A stretch of DNA of 64,000 nt from Escherichia coli (GTDB taxonomy: Bacteria > Pseudomonadota > Gammaproteobacteria > Enterobacterales > Enterobacteriaceae), in NCBI RefSeq assembly GCF_048403405.1, contig NZ_CP183129.1; one strand, given 5' to 3'. The notes under the pieces were generated by a model. That model was given only the letters and a program-made list of their open reading frames with translations. It was not told the origin of the DNA and did not search any database. The position numbers and the translations under genes were made by a program. Below are positions 27,664 to 57,786 of this stretch, one piece after another. The stretch's first letter is position 1. Each line of letters starts with the position of its first letter.

Positions 27664-27708
27664 GGTCTTGTAGGCCTGATAAGACGCGTGAGCGTCGCAT
27701 CAGGCAAG
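27664..27708. repeat. REP element between cysI and cysH
   Basis: GTAGGCCTGATAAGACGCGTGAGCGTCGCATCAGGC palindromic REP pattern. Confidence 0.75.
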
Positions 27709-48582: not shown

Positions 48583-49575
48583 ATGAGTCAGAATACGCTG
48601 AAAGTTCATGATTTAAATGAAGATGCGGAATTTGATGAGAACGGAGTTGAGGTTTTTGACGAAAAGGCCTTAGTAGAAGAGGAACCCAGTGATAACGATT
48701 TGGCCGAAGAGGAACTGTTATCGCAGGGAGCCACACAGCGTGTGCTGGACGCGACTCAGCTTTACCTTGGTGAGATTGGTTATTCACCACTGTTAACGGC
48801 CGAAGAAGAAGTTTATTTTGCGCGTCGCGCACTGCGTGGAGATGTTGCCTCCCGCCGCCGGATGATCGAGAGTAACTTGCGTCTGGTGGTAAAAATTGCC
48901 CGCCGTTATGGCAATCGTGGTCTGGCGTTGCTGGACCTGATCGAAGAGGGCAACCTGGGGCTGATCCGCGCGGTAGAGAAGTTTGACCCGGAACGTGGTT
49001 TCCGCTTCTCAACATACGCAACCTGGTGGATTCGCCAGACGATCGAACGGGCGATTATGAACCAAACCCGTACTATTCGTTTGCCTATTCACATCGTAAA
49101 GGAGCTGAACGTTTACCTGCGAACCGCACGCGAGTTGTCCCATAAACTGGACCACGAACCAAGTGCGGAAGAGATCGCAGAGCAACTGGATAAGCCAGTT
49201 GATGACGTCAGCCGTATGCTTCGTCTTAACGAGCGCATTACCTCGGTAGACACCCCGCTGGGTGGTGATTCCGAAAAAGCGTTGCTGGACATCCTGGCCG
49301 ATGAAAAAGAGAACGGTCCGGAAGATACCACGCAAGATGACGATATGAAGCAGAGCATCGTCAAATGGCTGTTCGAGCTGAACGCCAAACAGCGTGAAGT
49401 ACTGGCACGTCGATTCGGTTTGCTGGGGTACGAAGCGGCAACATTGGAAGATGTAGGTCGTGAAATTGGCCTCACCCGTGAACGTGTTCGCCAGATTCAG
49501 GTTGAAGGCCTGCGCCGTTTGCGCGAAATCCTGCAAACGCAGGGGCTGAATATCGAAGCGCTGTTCCGCGAGTAA
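48583..49575 (+). CDS. rpoS: RNA polymerase sigma factor RpoS (sigma-38)
   Basis: Start at ATG 48583 ([17 protein letters not shown]...) with AGGAG RBS; ORF-track start 48547 is an upstream extension. Confidence 0.97.
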
Positions 49576-49593
49576 GTAAGCATCTGTCAGAAA

Positions 49594-49627
49594 GGCCAGT
49601 CTCAAGCGAGGCTGGCCTTTTTCTTTT
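49594..49627. terminator. rpoS rho-independent terminator (likely bidirectional)
   Basis: GGCCAGTCTC-AAGC-GAGGCTGGCC stem followed by TTTTTCTTTT; a REP-like sequence follows at about 49631-49694. Confidence 0.8.
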
Positions 49628-49694
49628 GGTTGGGGAGCCGGTGTGTTTGTGGGCTGGATAAGCCGCAATAGCGTCTCATCCGGCAATTTGCACC

Positions 49695-50102: not shown

Positions 50103-50218
50103 GTAAACTCCGGGCTAATTCTCTGTCGCTATCATAGCGGTTTTTCAGTGACGAAGAAGATGTTGTTACTTTTCAATCCTTGCCGCTGTGGAAATGAAGG
50201 AGTATGTTAATAATAACG

Positions 50219-50230
50219 TTCGTATACGAA
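50219..50230. promoter_or_regulatory. Perfect 12-bp palindrome TTCGTATACGAA, candidate MarR-type operator
   Basis: Lies 19 nt upstream of the UbiX-like ATG (50249) in the divergent intergenic region. Confidence 0.45.
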
Positions 50231-50248
50231 CAATTAAGAGAGTAAGCA

Positions 50249-50842
50249 ATGAAACTGATCGTCGGGATGACAGGGGCTACCGGTGCGCCTCTTGGTGTGG
50301 CATTACTGCAAGCGCTGCGGGAGATGCCGAATGTCGAGACTCATCTGGTGATGTCGAAGTGGGCGAAAACCACTATTGAACTGGAAACGCCTTACAGCGC
50401 TCGCGATGTTGCCGCCCTCGCAGACTTCAGCCATAACCCGGCGGATCAGGCGGCGACTATCTCTTCCGGCTCCTTTCGTACCGACGGCATGATCGTTATT
50501 CCATGCAGTATGAAAACGCTCGCCGGTATCCGCGCTGGTTACGCCGATGGCCTGGTGGGGCGCGCGGCGGACGTCGTGCTCAAAGAAGGCCGCAAACTGG
50601 TGCTGGTGCCGCGTGAAATGCCGCTTAGCACAATCCATCTCGAAAATATGCTCGCACTTTCGCGCATGGGCGTGGCGATGGTGCCGCCGATGCCTGCCTT
50701 TTATAACCATCCCGAAACGGTAGATGACATTGTCCACCACGTGGTAGCCCGCGTGCTGGATCAATTTGGCCTCGAACATCCTCACGCCAGGCGCTGGCAA
50801 GGATTGCCGCAGGCCCGGAATTTTTCTCAGGAGAATGAATAA
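50249..50842 (+). CDS. ecdB: UbiX/Pad1-family flavin prenyltransferase (EcdB/VdcB/KpdB-like)
   Basis: 197-aa ORF MKLIVGMTGATGAPLGVALLQALR... typical UbiX N-terminus. Confidence 0.88.
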   Translation: MKLIVGMTGATGAPLGVALLQALREMPNVETHLVMSKWAKTTIELETPYSARDVAALADFSHNPADQAATISSGSFRTDGMIVIPCSMKTLAGIRAGYADGLVGRAADVVLKEGRKLVLVPREMPLSTIHLENMLALSRMGVAMVPPMPAFYNHPETVDDIVHHVVARVLDQFGLEHPHARRWQGLPQARNFSQENE

Positions 50843-52269
50843 TGGCATTTGATGATTTACGCAGCTTTTTACAGGCGCTTGATGACCACGGCCAGTTACT
50901 GAAAATCAGCGAAGAGGTGAACGCGGAACCGGATCTGGCAGCCGCAGCCAACGCCACCGGGCGTATCGGCGACGGCGCGCCCGCGCTTTGGTTTGATAAT
51001 ATTCGCGGCTTTATCGATGCCCGCGTGGCAATGAACACCATCGGTTCCTGGCAGAACCACGCGATTTCCCTCGGCCTGCCGCCAAACACCCCGGTTAAAA
51101 AACAGATTGATGAGTTTATCCGCCGCTGGGATAACTTCCCCATTACCCCGGAGCGCCGCGCCAATCCAGCCTGGGCGCAGAACACCGTCGATGGCGACGA
51201 GATCAACCTGTTCGATATTCTGCCGCTGTTTCGTTTAAACGACGGTGATGGCGGTTTCTATCTCGATAAAGCGTGCGTGGTTTCCCGCGATCCGCTCGAC
51301 CCGGATAACTTCGGCAAGCAGAACGTCGGCATCTACCGCATGGAAGTGAAGGGCAAACGTAAGCTCGGCCTGCAACCGGTGCCGATGCACGATATCGCTC
51401 TGCATCTGCATAAAGCGGAAGAACGCGGTGAAGATCTGCCGATTGCCATCACCCTGGGTAACGATCCGAACATCACCCTGATGGGCGCCACGCCGCTGAA
51501 ATACGATCAGTCTGAGTACGAAATGGCGGGCGCGCTGCGCGAAAGCCCGTACCCGATCGCCACCGCCCCGCTGACCGGTTTTGATGTGCCGTGGGGCTCG
51601 GAAGTGATCCTCGAAGGGGTTATCGAAAGTCGTAAACGTGAGATTGAAGGGCCGTTCGGTGAGTTTACCGGCCACTACTCCGGCGGGCGTAACATGACCG
51701 TGGTGCGTATCGATAAAGTCTCTTACCGTACCAAACCGATTTTCGAATCGCTCTATCTTGGTATGCCGTGGACCGAAATCGACTACCTGATGGGGCCTGC
51801 CACCTGCGTGCCGCTGTATCAGCAACTGAAAGCCGAGTTCCCGGAAGTGCAGGCGGTAAACGCCATGTACACCCACGGCCTGTTGGCGATTATCTCCACC
51901 AAAAAACGCTACGGCGGCTTTGCCCGCGCGGTGGGCCTGCGTGCAATGACCACGCCGCACGGTCTGGGCTACGTGAAGATGGTGATTATGGTCGATGAAG
52001 ACGTTGATCCGTTCAACCTGCCGCAGGTGATGTGGGCGCTCTCCTCGAAAGTGAACCCGGCAGGCGACCTGGTGCAGTTGCCAAATATGTCCGTGCTGGA
52101 ACTCGACCCTGGCTCAAGCCCGGCGGGGATCACCGACAAGCTGATTATCGACGCCACCACGCCTGTCGCCCCGGACAACCGTGGTCACTACAGCCAGCCG
52201 GTGGTGGATTTACCGGAAACCAAAGCCTGGGCTGAAAAACTGACCGCTATGCTGGCCGCACGTAAATAA
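50842..52269 (+). CDS. ecdC: UbiD-family (prFMN-dependent) decarboxylase, phenolic-acid decarboxylase C-subunit-like
   Basis: 475-aa UbiD-like ORF translationally coupled to the UbiX-like gene. Confidence 0.85.
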   Translation: MAFDDLRSFLQALDDHGQLLKISEEVNAEPDLAAAANATGRIGDGAPALWFDNIRGFIDARVAMNTIGSWQNHAISLGLPPNTPVKKQIDEFIRRWDNFPITPERRANPAWAQNTVDGDEINLFDILPLFRLNDGDGGFYLDKACVVSRDPLDPDNFGKQNVGIYRMEVKGKRKLGLQPVPMHDIALHLHKAEERGEDLPIAITLGNDPNITLMGATPLKYDQSEYEMAGALRESPYPIATAPLTGFDVPWGSEVILEGVIESRKREIEGPFGEFTGHYSGGRNMTVVRIDKVSYRTKPIFESLYLGMPWTEIDYLMGPATCVPLYQQLKAEFPEVQAVNAMYTHGLLAIISTKKRYGGFARAVGLRAMTTPHGLGYVKMVIMVDEDVDPFNLPQVMWALSSKVNPAGDLVQLPNMSVLELDPGSSPAGITDKLIIDATTPVAPDNRGHYSQPVVDLPETKAWAEKLTAMLAARK

Positions 52270-52279
52270 GGAGAACAAG

Positions 52280-52516
52280 ATGATTTGTCCACGTTGTGCT
52301 GATGAACAGATTGAAGTGATGGCGAAATCGCCGGTAAAAGATGTCTGGACAGTCTATCAGTGCCAGCATTGCCTCTATACCTGGCGCGATACCGAACCGC
52401 TTCGCCGCACCAGCCGCGAACATTACCCGGAAGCGTTTCGTATGACGCAGAAAGACATTGATGACGCGCCAATGGTGCCGAGCATTCCGCCGCTGCTGGC
52501 GGAAGGTAAGCGCTAA
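52280..52516 (+). CDS. ecdD: Small zinc-ribbon subunit of phenolic-acid decarboxylase (YclD/VdcD-like)
   Basis: 78-aa ORF with CPRC...CQHC motif directly after the UbiD-like gene. Confidence 0.75.
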   Translation: MICPRCADEQIEVMAKSPVKDVWTVYQCQHCLYTWRDTEPLRRTSREHYPEAFRMTQKDIDDAPMVPSIPPLLAEGKR

Positions 52517-52550
52517 ATAAAAGGTCCGATGCCCATCGGACCTTTTTATT
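52517..52550. terminator. Bidirectional terminator between ecdD and ygbN
   Basis: AAAAGGTCCGAT-GCCC-ATCGGACCTTTTTATT. Confidence 0.8.
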
Positions 52551-52554
52551 AAGG

Positions 52555-53919
52555 TCAAATTACCGCCCATACGCACCAGGTAATTAAGAATCCGGTAAAA
52601 CCGAGAATGGTCGTTAACACTGTCCAGGTTTTCAGACCGTCTGCTACCGACAACCCCAGATATTTGGTCACAATCCAGAACCCTGAGTCATTAATATGTG
52701 ACGCGCCAAGCCCACCAAAGCAGGCTGCCAGCGTCACCAATACGCACTGAATCGGATTCAATCCCATCACCGCTTCTGAGAGTAACCCGCCGGTTGTCAG
52801 GATTGCTACGGTTGCTGACCCCTGCGATGCACGCAGCGCCAGTGAAATAATAAATGCGGCTGGTAACAGAGGCAGGTCAATCATTTGTAGCATGTTGGCA
52901 AGGGCTTTGCCGACGCCCGATTCCACCAGCACTTTGCCAAATACCCCTCCAGCACCAGTAACCAAAATCACTACCGCCGCGGTGGGAAGGGCTGAGCCCA
53001 TAATGTCGCTGGTGTGTTGTAAGCTCCAGCCGCGACGTAAAGCCAATAACCAGAATGCCAGCACCAGCGCAATCATTAGAGCTACCATTGGTGAGCCGAT
53101 CAGCTGTAGCGTACCAAGCAGGGGATGCGAAGGCGGCATCAGTGTTGCGGAAACCGTACCCGCCATGATAATCGCGATAGGAATAACAATTAGCGAGGTG
53201 ACCAGCGCGACGCCCGGTGGATTTATTTTATCGCTTAATTTTGTCGCGCCTTCCTCACTGGCCGGAGCCAGTTGCATCTGTTCCAGTACTTCCACCGACA
53301 TCGCATATTGGCACTTATTGATTATTTTCGCTGCAAAGTAGCCAACAATCCCTACGGGAATAGAAATCGCAATACCGATGATGGTTAGCCAGCCGATGTC
53401 TGCGTGGAGTAACCCCGCTGCGGCGACAGGGCCTGGATGCGGCGGTACCGCCACATGAACAGTTAGCATGATTCCAGCGACAGGCAGGCCAAATTTGAGT
53501 GGCGATATTTTGGCAACCTTGGCAAAACCGTAAATGATTGGCGCAAGAATAATAAAGCCGACATCAAAGAAGACGGGAATACCGAGGAAGAACGCTGCCA
53601 GAGTCAGCGCAGCGATAGTTCGTTTGTCACCTAACTTGCGACTGAAATAATTAGCCAGTGACTCTGCACCACCAGAGTGTTCGATCATACGCCCCAGCAT
53701 AGCGCCCAGACCAATAATAATAGTGACGGAACCAAGCACACCGCCCATCCCGGCGATCATCACTTTACCCACTTCGCCCGCCGGTATACCCGCCGCAAGT
53801 GCGACTAACAGGCTGACGAGGAGCAGAGCAACGAATGGTTGTACCTTTGCCTTGATGACCAGCAGCAACAGCATGATTACGCCAGTTAACGCAATGCATA
53901 ACAATGTAATTGTGGACAT
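52555..53919 (-). CDS. ygbN: GntP-family permease YgbN
   Basis: 454-aa polytopic membrane ORF. Confidence 0.88.
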   Translation of the reverse strand: MSTITLLCIALTGVIMLLLLVIKAKVQPFVALLLVSLLVALAAGIPAGEVGKVMIAGMGGVLGSVTIIIGLGAMLGRMIEHSGGAESLANYFSRKLGDKRTIAALTLAAFFLGIPVFFDVGFIILAPIIYGFAKVAKISPLKFGLPVAGIMLTVHVAVPPHPGPVAAAGLLHADIGWLTIIGIAISIPVGIVGYFAAKIINKCQYAMSVEVLEQMQLAPASEEGATKLSDKINPPGVALVTSLIVIPIAIIMAGTVSATLMPPSHPLLGTLQLIGSPMVALMIALVLAFWLLALRRGWSLQHTSDIMGSALPTAAVVILVTGAGGVFGKVLVESGVGKALANMLQMIDLPLLPAAFIISLALRASQGSATVAILTTGGLLSEAVMGLNPIQCVLVTLAACFGGLGASHINDSGFWIVTKYLGLSVADGLKTWTVLTTILGFTGFLITWCVWAVI

Positions 53920-54007
53920 GGGAAACCCTGTCTGAAAGTTATAGTTAACCTACCCCATCCGTAGATGGGGGGATGTATGGGTACGTTGTAATTAGGGATT
54001 TAACGAA

Positions 54008-54784
54008 TTAGCGCCAGGCGTCAAACCAGCCCAGCCCTTCTTCGGTGAGGCCACGAGGTTTATATTCACAACCGATCCAGCCCTGATATCCCACCTCATC
54101 GAACAGGCGGAACAGCCACGGATAGTTGATTTCTCCATCGTCCGGTTCATGTCGATCAGGTAGTCCGGCAATTTGTACGTGCGCATATTTCCCGGCGTAG
54201 TCGCGGATTAAATGCGTCAGGTTGCCATCTACTTTTTGCGCATGAAAAGTATCTAGTTGAATAAACACGTTATCTCGCGCAACTTCTTCAACAATAGCCA
54301 GTGCCTGATACTGGCTGGAGAAGAGATAATGAGGCTTAACGCCGGGGCTGAGTGCTTCAACTAATATTCGCTTGCCGTGTGGCGCAAAGCGGTCGGCAGC
54401 GTAGCGGAGATTATCGATAAATACTGCCCTGTACCGTTCAGCATCTTCGCCAGCGGGCACGACGCCTGCCATCACATGGACTTGTTCACAATTGAGCGCC
54501 AATGCATATTCCAGTGCCAGGTCGATGTCTGCGTGTGCTTCGTGCTCACGTCCGGGAAGGGCGGATAATCCCCATTCCCCCGCATTAATATCTCCGGGAG
54601 CGGTATTGAACAGCGCCAGTGTCAGATGGTTTTGCTCCAGTTGCTTTTGGATTTGCAGGGTGGAGTAGTCATAGGGAAACAGAAATTCCACAGCATCGAA
54701 CCCGGCTTTTCGCGCTGCGGCGAAGCGTTCAATAAAAGGCACTTCGGTGAACATCATGGATAAATTAGCTGCAAAACGAGGCAT
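54008..54784 (-). CDS. ygbM: Xylose-isomerase-like TIM-barrel isomerase YgbM (2-oxo-tetronate isomerase OtnI)
   Basis: 258-aa ORF, hydroxypyruvate-isomerase-like. Confidence 0.85.
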
Positions 54785-54788
54785 TGCA

Positions 54789-55427
54789 TTAACTCCTTAA
54801 TTCCGCAATTTCACCTGCGGTCAGATAACGGATCGGGCGGTCACCGAGAATAAAAATCAGCTTTGCCGTTTCCTCCAGCTCTTCCATATTGTTGGCGGCT
54901 TCTTGCAGGCTTTCACCGCAAACCACTGGGCCATGATTTGCCAGTAAAAAAGCCTGATTGTCTGCTGCCAGTTCCGCCAGATCCTGTGCGATGCGTTTAT
55001 CGCCCGGTCGGTAATAAGGCACCAGCGGGACATTTCCCATCCGCATCACCACGTATGGTGTGAACGGACGAATAACGTTGCTGCTGTCCAGCCCTTGCAG
55101 GCAGGAAAGCGCCGTCGACCATGTGCTGTGCAAATGCACCACCGCTTTACAGCGCGGATTGTTGCGATACAGCGCCAGATGAAAGAGCACCTCTTTCGAG
55201 GGTTTGTCACCACTTAACCATTCGCCATCCGCGGCGACTTTGGAAAGCCGCTGCGGATCGAGATTGCCCAGGCATGAACCTGTCGGTGTCGCCAGTAAAT
55301 TCCCGTCAGGTAAAAGCAGCGACAAATTGCCAGCCGAACCGGTTGCATAGCCGCGCTGAAAGAATGAACTGGCAATCCGCGTCATCTCCTCTCGCAAAGA
55401 CTGCTCTACTTTTGCGAAATCGCTCAT
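54789..55427 (-). CDS. ygbL: Class II aldolase/adducin-family protein YgbL (OtnC-like decarboxylase)
   Basis: 212-aa ORF of the class II aldolase fold. Confidence 0.85.
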
Positions 55428-56686
55428 GATAAAAACTCTCTTTGGGCTCGTGAAAAAAAGGCTTCATCACCGAAGTTGCCAGATTTAAGGGCGAGTGAGA
55501 CAGGTTTATCCAGTGCGTTTACCCACGGCACGCCGGGAGAAATGGTTGGGCCAATATGAAACCCTTTTATTCCCAGGCTCTGTGTGACTACGCCGGAGGT
55601 CTCACCGCCTGCGACAATAAAGCGTGTCACGCCTTCCGCTGCTAACCGCGCCGCTAGTTGAGAAAACAGTGTTTCTACTGCCTGACTGGCTTTATGTGCA
55701 CCGTATTGCTGTTGAATTGCTGCCAATGCGTCAGTGCTGGCAGTGGCAAAAACCAGTGGAGCAAGTACACTTTCCTGGCCCAGAACCCACTCTGCCAGTT
55801 CGTGTGCATAAGCGGCCAGAGTTTCAATTGAGAGGCAGCGTGCCACATCAACTTCACGGGCTGGTGCAATTTGACGGTAATGTGCTACCTGGCAGTTGGT
55901 CATTTGAGAGCATGAACCGGAGAGCACTACGCCGCGCCCAGCGAGCGGATGCCCTGCTTTGCGAGCCTGGTTACCGTTTTCTTGCGCCCACTGCCGGGCA
56001 AGGCCAATCGCCAGACCAGAACCGCCCGTTACCAGTGGGGTATCGCGCAAGGCTTCTCCCTGAATTTCCAGATGGTGTTCGGTCAGCGCATCAAGCACCG
56101 CGTAGCGGTAGCCCTCTTGCTGTAAGCGAGCCAGCTCTTGACGAACGGCATCCACACCTTGTTCGAAAACATGTGCCGAAACGACGCCGCAGCGCCCTGT
56201 GGATTGCGCTTCAACCAGACGGGGAAGATAGCTGTCGGTCATGGGATTTACCGGGTGATGGCGCATCCCGGATTCGGCCAGCAGTTGATTCATTACGAAC
56301 AAATACCCCTGATAAACCGTACGTCCGTTGACCGGCAGGGCCGGAGAGAAGACCGTAAACGGCGTGTCGAGAGCATCCATTAATGCATCGGTAACCGGGC
56401 CGATATTACCTTTCGCCGAACTGTCGAAAGTAGAGCAGTATTTGAAATAGATCTGTTTGCAACCTTGCTGTTGCAACCAGCTCAGTGCCGCCAGCGATTG
56501 CTGTGTGGCTTCAACCACCGGACAGGAACGCGTTTTCAGGCTGATCACCAGTGCGTCGATTGCTTCCGGCATTTTACCTGTTGGAACACCGTTAATTTGT
56601 ACCGTTGGTAGACCGTTTTCCACCAGAAAACTGGCGATATCCGTCGCGCCGGTAAAATCATCGGCGATAACGCCAATCTTGATCAT
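55424..56686 (-). CDS. ygbK: Four-carbon acid-sugar kinase YgbK (OtnK, DUF1537 family)
   Basis: 420-aa ORF MIKIGVIADDFTGATDIASFL... Confidence 0.85.
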   Translation of the reverse strand: MIKIGVIADDFTGATDIASFLVENGLPTVQINGVPTGKMPEAIDALVISLKTRSCPVVEATQQSLAALSWLQQQGCKQIYFKYCSTFDSSAKGNIGPVTDALMDALDTPFTVFSPALPVNGRTVYQGYLFVMNQLLAESGMRHHPVNPMTDSYLPRLVEAQSTGRCGVVSAHVFEQGVDAVRQELARLQQEGYRYAVLDALTEHHLEIQGEALRDTPLVTGGSGLAIGLARQWAQENGNQARKAGHPLAGRGVVLSGSCSQMTNCQVAHYRQIAPAREVDVARCLSIETLAAYAHELAEWVLGQESVLAPLVFATASTDALAAIQQQYGAHKASQAVETLFSQLAARLAAEGVTRFIVAGGETSGVVTQSLGIKGFHIGPTISPGVPWVNALDKPVSLALKSGNFGDEAFFSRAQREFLS

Positions 56687-57591
56687 GATTTCGCTCCCGG
56701 TAGAGTGATGCCAGAGAAAATCTTGATAACTGCGCTATCGTCTTCTTTCCCGTAACCCGCGTTACTGGCGCTGGTGAACATATTCAATGCTGTTGAGGCC
56801 AATGGCAGCGGGAAGTGCAGGGCTTTGGCTGTATCGGCAACCAGACCAAGATCCTTAACAAAAATATCGACGGCTGAATGCGGGGTGTAATCGCCATCCA
56901 CCACATGACGCATCCGGTTTTCGAACATCCAGGAATTTCCGGCGGCATTGGTCACGACGTCATACATCACATCCAGCGGGATCCCCGCACGGGCTGCAAG
57001 TGCCATCGCTTCGGCTCCGGCAGCAATATGTACGCCCGCTAACAACTGGTGAATAATTTTTACGGTCGAACCTAGTCCCGGTTCTGCACCTATGCGATAA
57101 ACTTTTCCGGCAACGGCTTCCAGCACGGGTGCCAGTCGTTCAAAGGCAATATCGCTACCGGAGGCCATGACAGTCATTTCACCGTTAGCGGCTTTTACTG
57201 CACCACCAGAAACTGGCGCATCCAGCATTTCCAGATCGAATCCAGCCAGAGCGGTAGCAATTTCTTGCGCATCAGCACTAGCGATAGTGGAAGAAACCAT
57301 TACTGCCGTACCGGGTTTCAGATGTTGTGCAACGCCTGTTTCACCAAACAGCACCTGTTTAACCTGGGCCGCATTGACCACCAGCACCAGCAGAGCGTCC
57401 AGTTTTTCGGCAAACGTCGCGGCGTTATCAGAAACCCCGCAAGCACCTGCCTCTTTCAACGTAGCGCAGGCATTGCTGTTCAGGTCTGCGCCCCAGGTAG
57501 AAAGACCTGCGCGGACACATGACAGTGCTGCTCCCATTCCCATTGACCCTAAGCCAACGATACCGACATGAAACTCAGATCCCGTTTTCAT
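56683..57591 (-). CDS. ygbJ: NAD-dependent 3-hydroxyisobutyrate-dehydrogenase-family enzyme YgbJ (L-threonate dehydrogenase-like)
   Basis: 302-aa ORF with Rossmann motif VGIVGLGSMGMG. Confidence 0.88.
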   Translation of the reverse strand: MKTGSEFHVGIVGLGSMGMGAALSCVRAGLSTWGADLNSNACATLKEAGACGVSDNAATFAEKLDALLVLVVNAAQVKQVLFGETGVAQHLKPGTAVMVSSTIASADAQEIATALAGFDLEMLDAPVSGGAVKAANGEMTVMASGSDIAFERLAPVLEAVAGKVYRIGAEPGLGSTVKIIHQLLAGVHIAAGAEAMALAARAGIPLDVMYDVVTNAAGNSWMFENRMRHVVDGDYTPHSAVDIFVKDLGLVADTAKALHFPLPLASTALNMFTSASNAGYGKEDDSAVIKIFSGITLPGAKS

Positions 57592-57786
57592 CTGCTCTCC
57601 TTGTTAATTTAAGTGATGTTTTGTTTGATATTGTGAATATAGGCGCTGGAAGATAACGATATGGTGAGCTGATTCACAAAAATTAACATTGTGTGTTATT
57701 TTATGTGAACTAAGCGTTAGTTGCGCCGCGCACGTTTCGCAGGCAAATAGCGTAGAATGTCAGCAGGACAAAGGAAGGAGCAAAAG

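Follow-up and report, generated by a model that had tools for sequence, protein, structure and literature searches.

The 14-bp palindrome between hosA and ecdB of Escherichia coli is the published HosA operator, and its half-sites are conserved across Enterobacterales

Organization of the hosA-ecdBCD locus

The window analysed here is a stretch of 64,000 nucleotides of Escherichia coli (NCBI RefSeq assembly GCF_048403405.1, contig NZ_CP183129.1), in which pcm, nlpD and rpoS (ending at position 49575) are followed by hosA, an intergenic gap of 146 bp (50103-50248) and the ecdBCD operon. These surroundings correspond to the rpoS-mutS variable region of E. coli, and hosA and ecdB are transcribed divergently (Table 1). 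An initial annotation of this DNA, made from the letters of the sequence alone, had delimited exactly this gap between the MarR gene and ecdB as the region of interest.

The protein encoded by hosA is identical at 132 of its 135 residues, over the full length and with an E value of 6.9e-84, to the protein deposited in the PDB as "Transcriptional regulator HosA" (8aga, 8pq4 and other entries). The genes ecdB, ecdC and ecdD encode subunits B, C and D of a non-oxidative hydroxyarylic acid decarboxylase; all three products score above the curated NCBIfam cut-offs, and the RefSeq annotation of the locus agrees with the NCBIfam and Pfam assignments.

At 90-100% identity, the hosA-ecdB segment is found in 2404 of 5426 complete E. 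coli genomes, in keeping with what is known of it, namely that it is a variable insertion between rpoS and mutS. The region downstream of ecdD is a mosaic. In the window (52517-57600), the genes after ecdD are ygbN (a GntP transporter), ygbM, otnK, ltnD and others, and at least 80% of the 8-kb arrangement of the window is common to 1568 genomes; strain CFSAN018748 carries hosA-ecdB DNA that is 100% identical, but pphB and mutS come directly after ecdD (L001:6918-7614). On the other side of the locus, the edge of the variable insert carries a repeat of the REP type (49653-49684; minus strand, GCCGGATGAGACGCTATTGCGGCTTATCC), with the terminator hairpin of rpoS (49589-49622) on one side and the stop codon of hosA on the other. 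A looser second copy of this repeat is present at 27677-27705.

Table 1. Genes and sequence elements of the hosA-ecdBCD locus, with coordinates in the window.
Feature	Position	Strand	Remarks
hosA, MarR-family repressor, 135 aa	49695..50102	-	Pfam MarR PF01047/PF12802; RefSeq: MarR family regulator
Conserved block CGCTATCATAGCG, 13-bp palindrome	50127..50139	-	Putative hosA -10 (TATGAT, minus strand, 50136-50131)
Predicted -35 hexamer TTGCCG, ecdBCD promoter	50180..50185	+	TTG conserved at about 90% or more
Predicted -10 hexamer TATGTT, ecdBCD promoter	50203..50208	+	TA and final T conserved
HosA operator O1, GTTCGTATACGAAC	50218..50231	.	Two half-sites, GTTCG and CGAAC, separated by 4 bp that vary
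Shine-Dalgarno-like AAGAGAG	50236..50242	+	6 nt 5' of the ecdB ATG; TGAGGTG at this place in orthologues
ecdB (vdcB), UbiX-type flavin prenyltransferase, subunit B	50249..50842	+	NCBIfam VdcB NF041206, 312 bits (cut-off 290); Pfam Flavoprotein; RefSeq
ecdC (vdcC), UbiD-family decarboxylase, subunit C	50842..52269	+	NCBIfam VdcC, 787 bits (cut-off 650); Pfam UbiD_N, UbiD, UbiD_C
ecdD (vdcD), small subunit D	52280..52516	+	NCBIfam VdcD, 121 bits (cut-off 30)

The palindrome and the published HosA binding site

Within the gap, a 12-bp perfect palindrome, TTCGTATACGAA, is read on the plus strand at 50219-50230, where the initial annotation had reported one in the divergent promoter region of the MarR gene and ecdB. 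Its flanking G and C extend it to a 14-bp perfect palindrome, GTTCGTATACGAAC (exact match); the 12 bp named at first do form a perfect palindrome, but the full site is 2 bp longer. The ecdB ATG (50249) lies 18 nt from the end of the 12-mer and 17 nt from the end of the 14-mer, the 19 nt given originally being right by one counting convention, and the Shine-Dalgarno-like sequence begins 4 nt after GTTCGTATACGAAC. By number, such palindromes are not exceptional: the window contains 18 perfect 12-bp palindromes, against 15.6 expected, and 6 perfect 14-bp palindromes, against 3.9-4.0 expected, while approximately 0.009 of the latter (146/4^7) is expected in one gap of 146 bp. A search that allowed three mismatches returned matches to the palindrome at chance frequency. 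Since both the 12-bp and the 14-bp palindromes occur in the window at chance frequency, these statistics were dropped as evidence, and it is conservation, together with published binding data, that makes the site more than a product of chance.

HosA binding has been demonstrated by EMSA and BLI for a site that comes from strain UMN026 (PMC6261655). In that study, a 43-bp DNA "containing 14-bp TFBS of HosA", the site being called palindromic, was used in EMSA to show that 4-hydroxybenzoate (4-HBA) dissociates HosA, and a KD of 4.74 µM of HosA for 4-HBA was obtained by ITC (PMC6261655); binding of HosA and its release by p-HBA were reproduced later (PMC6694116, PMC10992608). The supplementary oligonucleotides have the composition CAGAGGCGTATTTTAATAATAAC-GTT(T)CGTATACGAAC-AATTAAGAGAATAAACA..., with TAATAATAAC included in the left flank (PMC6261655). 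The window sequence GTTCGTATACGAAC, with its flanks TAATAATAAC and AATTAAGAGA, agrees in its core and native flanks with these oligonucleotides, as well as with the E. coli alleles L003 and L005, and only a few flanking bases distinguish the window from the UMN026 probe (for example GTATGTTAAT versus GTATTTTAAT, and GAGAGTAAGCA versus GAGAATAAACA). The palindrome itself is essentially sufficient for HosA binding, because EMSA probe E1 retains just five native flanking bases beside it (PMC6261655).

Supplementary table S1 of the same paper prints the site as GTTTCGTATACGAAC, a sequence of 15 nt that is not self-complementary and that appears unchanged in the oligonucleotides of both strands. 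Since the text of the paper describes a 14-bp palindromic site and every genomic allele has GTTCG, the extra T (GTTTCG) is probably a typing or text-extraction error.

Regulation by HosA was described by Roy & Ranjan 2016 (Biochemistry 55:1120), which we cite as summarized in two bioRxiv structure papers: HosA represses the decarboxylase operon and itself, 4-HBA induces the operon and releases HosA, and the palindromic HosA site comes after the transcription start, a position described as "suggesting a steric blockade" of RNA polymerase. HosA has also been reported to act at fliC.

The published HosA operator and ecdBCD module of UMN026 and the locus in the window share the regulator (98% identical), the 14-bp palindrome, its immediate flanks, the divergent layout and, according to the literature, 4-HBA as the effector. 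Differences between the two are allelic only, being limited to a few flanking bases and three HosA amino acids, and the site in the window is, for practical purposes, the published element in another strain. GTTCGTATACGAAC is the published HosA operator, which is already known in E. coli and is not new. The initial annotation, which proposed an operator for the divergently encoded MarR regulator, repression of the decarboxylase operon and a phenolic ligand, is borne out on the first point by the published 14-bp site of HosA, on the second by the repression reported for HosA in Roy & Ranjan 2016, as related by the citing papers, and on the third by 4-hydroxybenzoate, which dissociates HosA from this site (PMC6261655). 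We consider it highly probable that GTTCGTATACGAAC functions as the HosA switch for ecdBCD.

Conservation of the operator and anatomy of the promoter region

A scan with the HosA protein, carried out on one genome per species, resulted in 80 loci with 58-98% identity, in about 70 of which hosA is divergent from ecdB. The comparison covered 76 gaps, including that of the window and five other E. coli alleles, and the column alignment comprised the 75 non-identical gaps. From Escherichia to Rahnella and Leminorella, the half-sites GTTCG and CGAAC are without a mismatch in 72 of the 76 gaps; of the four exceptions, three, all from Rahnella, have ATTCG as a half-site. In the alignment, the half-site columns are 99.6% identical to the window, compared with 85% for the centre and 51% elsewhere in the gap. 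Within the box, variation is seen at the central 4 bp only (TATA, TACA/TGTA, TATG/CATA or TGTG), and the distance from the end of the box to the ecdB ATG is 15-21 nt in nearly all 76 gaps. The site has the features general to MarR operators, namely a short palindrome (here a perfect one) with two half-sites, located in the regulator's own divergent promoter region and conserved along with the regulator.

Operator variants within Escherichia (L004, which is E. coli ECE313, and L008-L010, from other Escherichia species) differ at one centre base only (GTTCGTGTACGAAC), which fits the idea that HosA does not read the centre. At four loci (L055, L080, L082 and L084), the hosA homologue faces an operon that begins with the UbiD-type ecdC (MAFDDLRSF...) with no ecdB first, and a GTTCG-N4-CGAAC/T box is still located beside ecdC, approximately 130-180 nt upstream of hosA (3001). 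Judged from these loci, the box travels with the regulator. Enterobacteriaceae LSJC7 has a hosA-ecdB gap of 598 nt (L072:2403-3000), with the box 16 nt from ecdB and about 430 additional nucleotides separating hosA from the operator.

A strict sigma-70 consensus scan of the hosA-ecdB gap found no promoter; it missed the proposed ecdBCD hexamers, which together match the consensus at 8 of 12 positions. It was replaced by a conservation-based search for the pattern TTGNNN-17 nt-TANNNT upstream of the box. This pattern is present in 75 of the 76 gaps, with a 17-nt spacer in 74; in 66 of those 75, its end is separated from the box by 9-10 nt (9 nt in the window). From these conserved hexamers we infer that ecdBCD transcription would start at about 50214-50217, with the operator covering approximately +2 to +17. 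Such a start agrees with the statement, available to us second-hand, that the HosA site lies downstream of the transcription start. The placement of the site in the promoter, as originally proposed, is thereby refined to a position at or just after the predicted start and not over the -35 and -10 hexamers.

That the palindrome arose by chance and lacks a function, a reading consistent with the near-expected palindrome counts in the window, is so improbable as to be negligible: it is at odds with half-sites that stand out sharply from the rest of the gap in 75 non-identical sequences from many genera, with a fixed position relative to both the ecdB start and the promoter hexamers, and with published HosA binding (PMC6261655).

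On the hosA side of the gap, 25-35 nt from the hosA ATG, the alignment of the 75 gaps has some of its most conserved columns in CTAT(C/G)ATAGC(C/G), which is almost as well conserved across genera as the operator. This block, CGCTATCATAGCG in the window, is a plausible -10 element of hosA, although it might be the site of another protein. O1 lies about 90 bp from this putative -10, a distance that sits uneasily with the reported autorepression, given the single box in E. coli.

In 34 of the 76 gaps, a second box with the consensus GATCGTGTACGAAC was found 56-57 bp upstream of O1, typically with one or two half-site mismatches. These gaps belong to Klebsiella, Enterobacter, Kluyvera, Lelliottia, Leclercia, Pseudocitrobacter and Pluralibacter (example loci are L034, L039, L042, L025 and L050); in L050, the example that was checked, the second box (O2, 2904-2917) is located 4 nt upstream of the -35 hexamer, with O1 at 2848-2861. 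Escherichia, Salmonella and most Citrobacter are without the second box, and the Escherichia gap is approximately 25 nt shorter at this place. In the E. coli gap, no second HosA box was found at up to two half-site mismatches. The sequence TTTCAGTGACGAAG (50143-50156) was considered as a second E. coli box and rejected, as it has mismatches at 3 of 10 positions and a gap of this size would contain about 0.5 sites of this kind by chance alone. Titles and abstracts of nine papers that mention both hydroxyarylic acid decarboxylase and MarR suggest no two-box layout, and the contrast between two-box and one-box gaps may be undescribed so far. It is conceivable, with chances that we put slightly below even, that the second box is a true HosA site and that the E. 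coli system represents a two-operator switch reduced to a single operator.

The palindrome could also act as an RNA hairpin in the 5' leader of ecdB (GUUCG-UAUA-CGAAC) that controls translation or mRNA stability, instead of as a DNA operator. With a predicted start near 50215 the site is probably inside the transcript; its fold is a 5-bp stem capped by a loop of 4 nt, the variation between species falls on the loop positions, and this stem was also picked up, on the minus strand, by a scan for terminators. We regard this hairpin as very unlikely to be the function of the site, given that the 61-nt leader folds at -8.9 kcal/mol with z = -0.32, 68 of 200 shuffled sequences folding as well, and that the stem bases are invariant and show no compensatory changes, which points to recognition of the sequence rather than of pairing. 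In addition, the Shine-Dalgarno sequence lies beyond the hairpin and is not sequestered by it, the second copy of the box in 34 other loci is upstream of the -35 hexamer and outside the ecdB transcript, and direct binding of HosA to DNA has been published (PMC6261655). An intrinsic terminator was discarded as a candidate, the minus-strand hit having a poor T tract.

Another reading assigns the box mainly to a different MarR/SlyA-type regulator, for example SlyA, or to autoregulation of hosA, with control of ecdBCD being secondary. HosA has been named a "homologue of SlyA", and both are MarR/SlyA-type winged-helix dimers acting on a short perfect palindrome of similar size; SlyA structures are distant matches to the HosA of the window (E value of about 1e-7). 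SlyA is mostly an H-NS counter-silencer and not a ligand-released repressor of a single operon. Its box was reportedly described by Stapleton et al. in 2002 as the 12-bp palindrome TTAGCAAGCTAA; TTCGTATACGAA matches this consensus at 7 of 12 positions only. As for autoregulation, autorepression by HosA has been reported, according to the bioRxiv summaries of Roy & Ranjan 2016, yet the E. coli gap has a single box, and a minus-strand candidate promoter that is weak and specific to Escherichia (TTAATT-16-TATTAT, about 50237-50210) would have the box in its spacer, with TATTAT at 50215-50210 beside the box. These minus-strand hexamers are not conserved outside Escherichia, whereas the plus-strand TTG-17-TAnnnT pattern and the CTATsATAGC block near hosA are, and the literature assigns both the site and repression of the operon to HosA (PMC6261655, and for the operon the bioRxiv summary). 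Either form of this reading is unlikely, if a little less so than the hairpin, and HosA control of ecdBCD through O1 remains the preferred interpretation.

The proposed switch and related systems

The order of events that we propose starts from a HosA dimer whose two winged-helix domains would each sit on one of the half-sites, GTTCG or CGAAC. Bound immediately past the -10 hexamer and the predicted start, on a site whose first base is at about +2 to +5, HosA would either exclude RNA polymerase or block promoter clearance, and ecdBCD would be off; we infer a steric block of RNA polymerase by HosA at O1. 4-Hydroxybenzoate, free or released from parabens, would enter the cell and bind HosA, which would then leave the DNA and allow transcription of ecdBCD. 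EcdB, which as a UbiX-type enzyme we take to be the source of prenylated FMN for the UbiD-type EcdC, would make this prenylated flavin cofactor, and the phenolic acid would be decarboxylated by EcdC, with EcdD as the small subunit.

The bsdBCD (yclBCD) operon of Bacillus subtilis is an orthologous B/C/D decarboxylase operon with a divergent regulator and is induced by phenolic acids, but its regulator BsdA is a LysR-type activator, unlike the MarR repressor HosA, and both the DNA site and the mechanism differ. PcaV of Streptomyces coelicolor is a MarR repressor of an aromatic-acid pathway that is released by protocatechuate or 4-hydroxybenzoate; its operator sequence is expected to differ from that of HosA, and its targets are genes for ring cleavage and not for decarboxylation. 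Among solved structures, PcaV (PDB 4fht/4g9y) is the second-best match to the regulator of the window, with an E value of 6e-16, and is a distant homologue.

The switch formed by HosA, 4-HBA and ecdBCD has been published for E. coli and is already in use in in-vitro biosensors; in the present case, a repressor operator and its class of ligand had been called correctly from the raw sequence without tools. The footprint GTTCG-N4-CGAAC, with fixed half-sites and a free centre, defines the bases that HosA needs. Should the second box prove to be a genuine site for HosA, the one-box and two-box versions of the switch could differ in tightness, cooperativity or autoregulation, which would be relevant to HosA-based 4-HBA biosensors, and the presence of a second box in other genera could explain differences in regulation between species.
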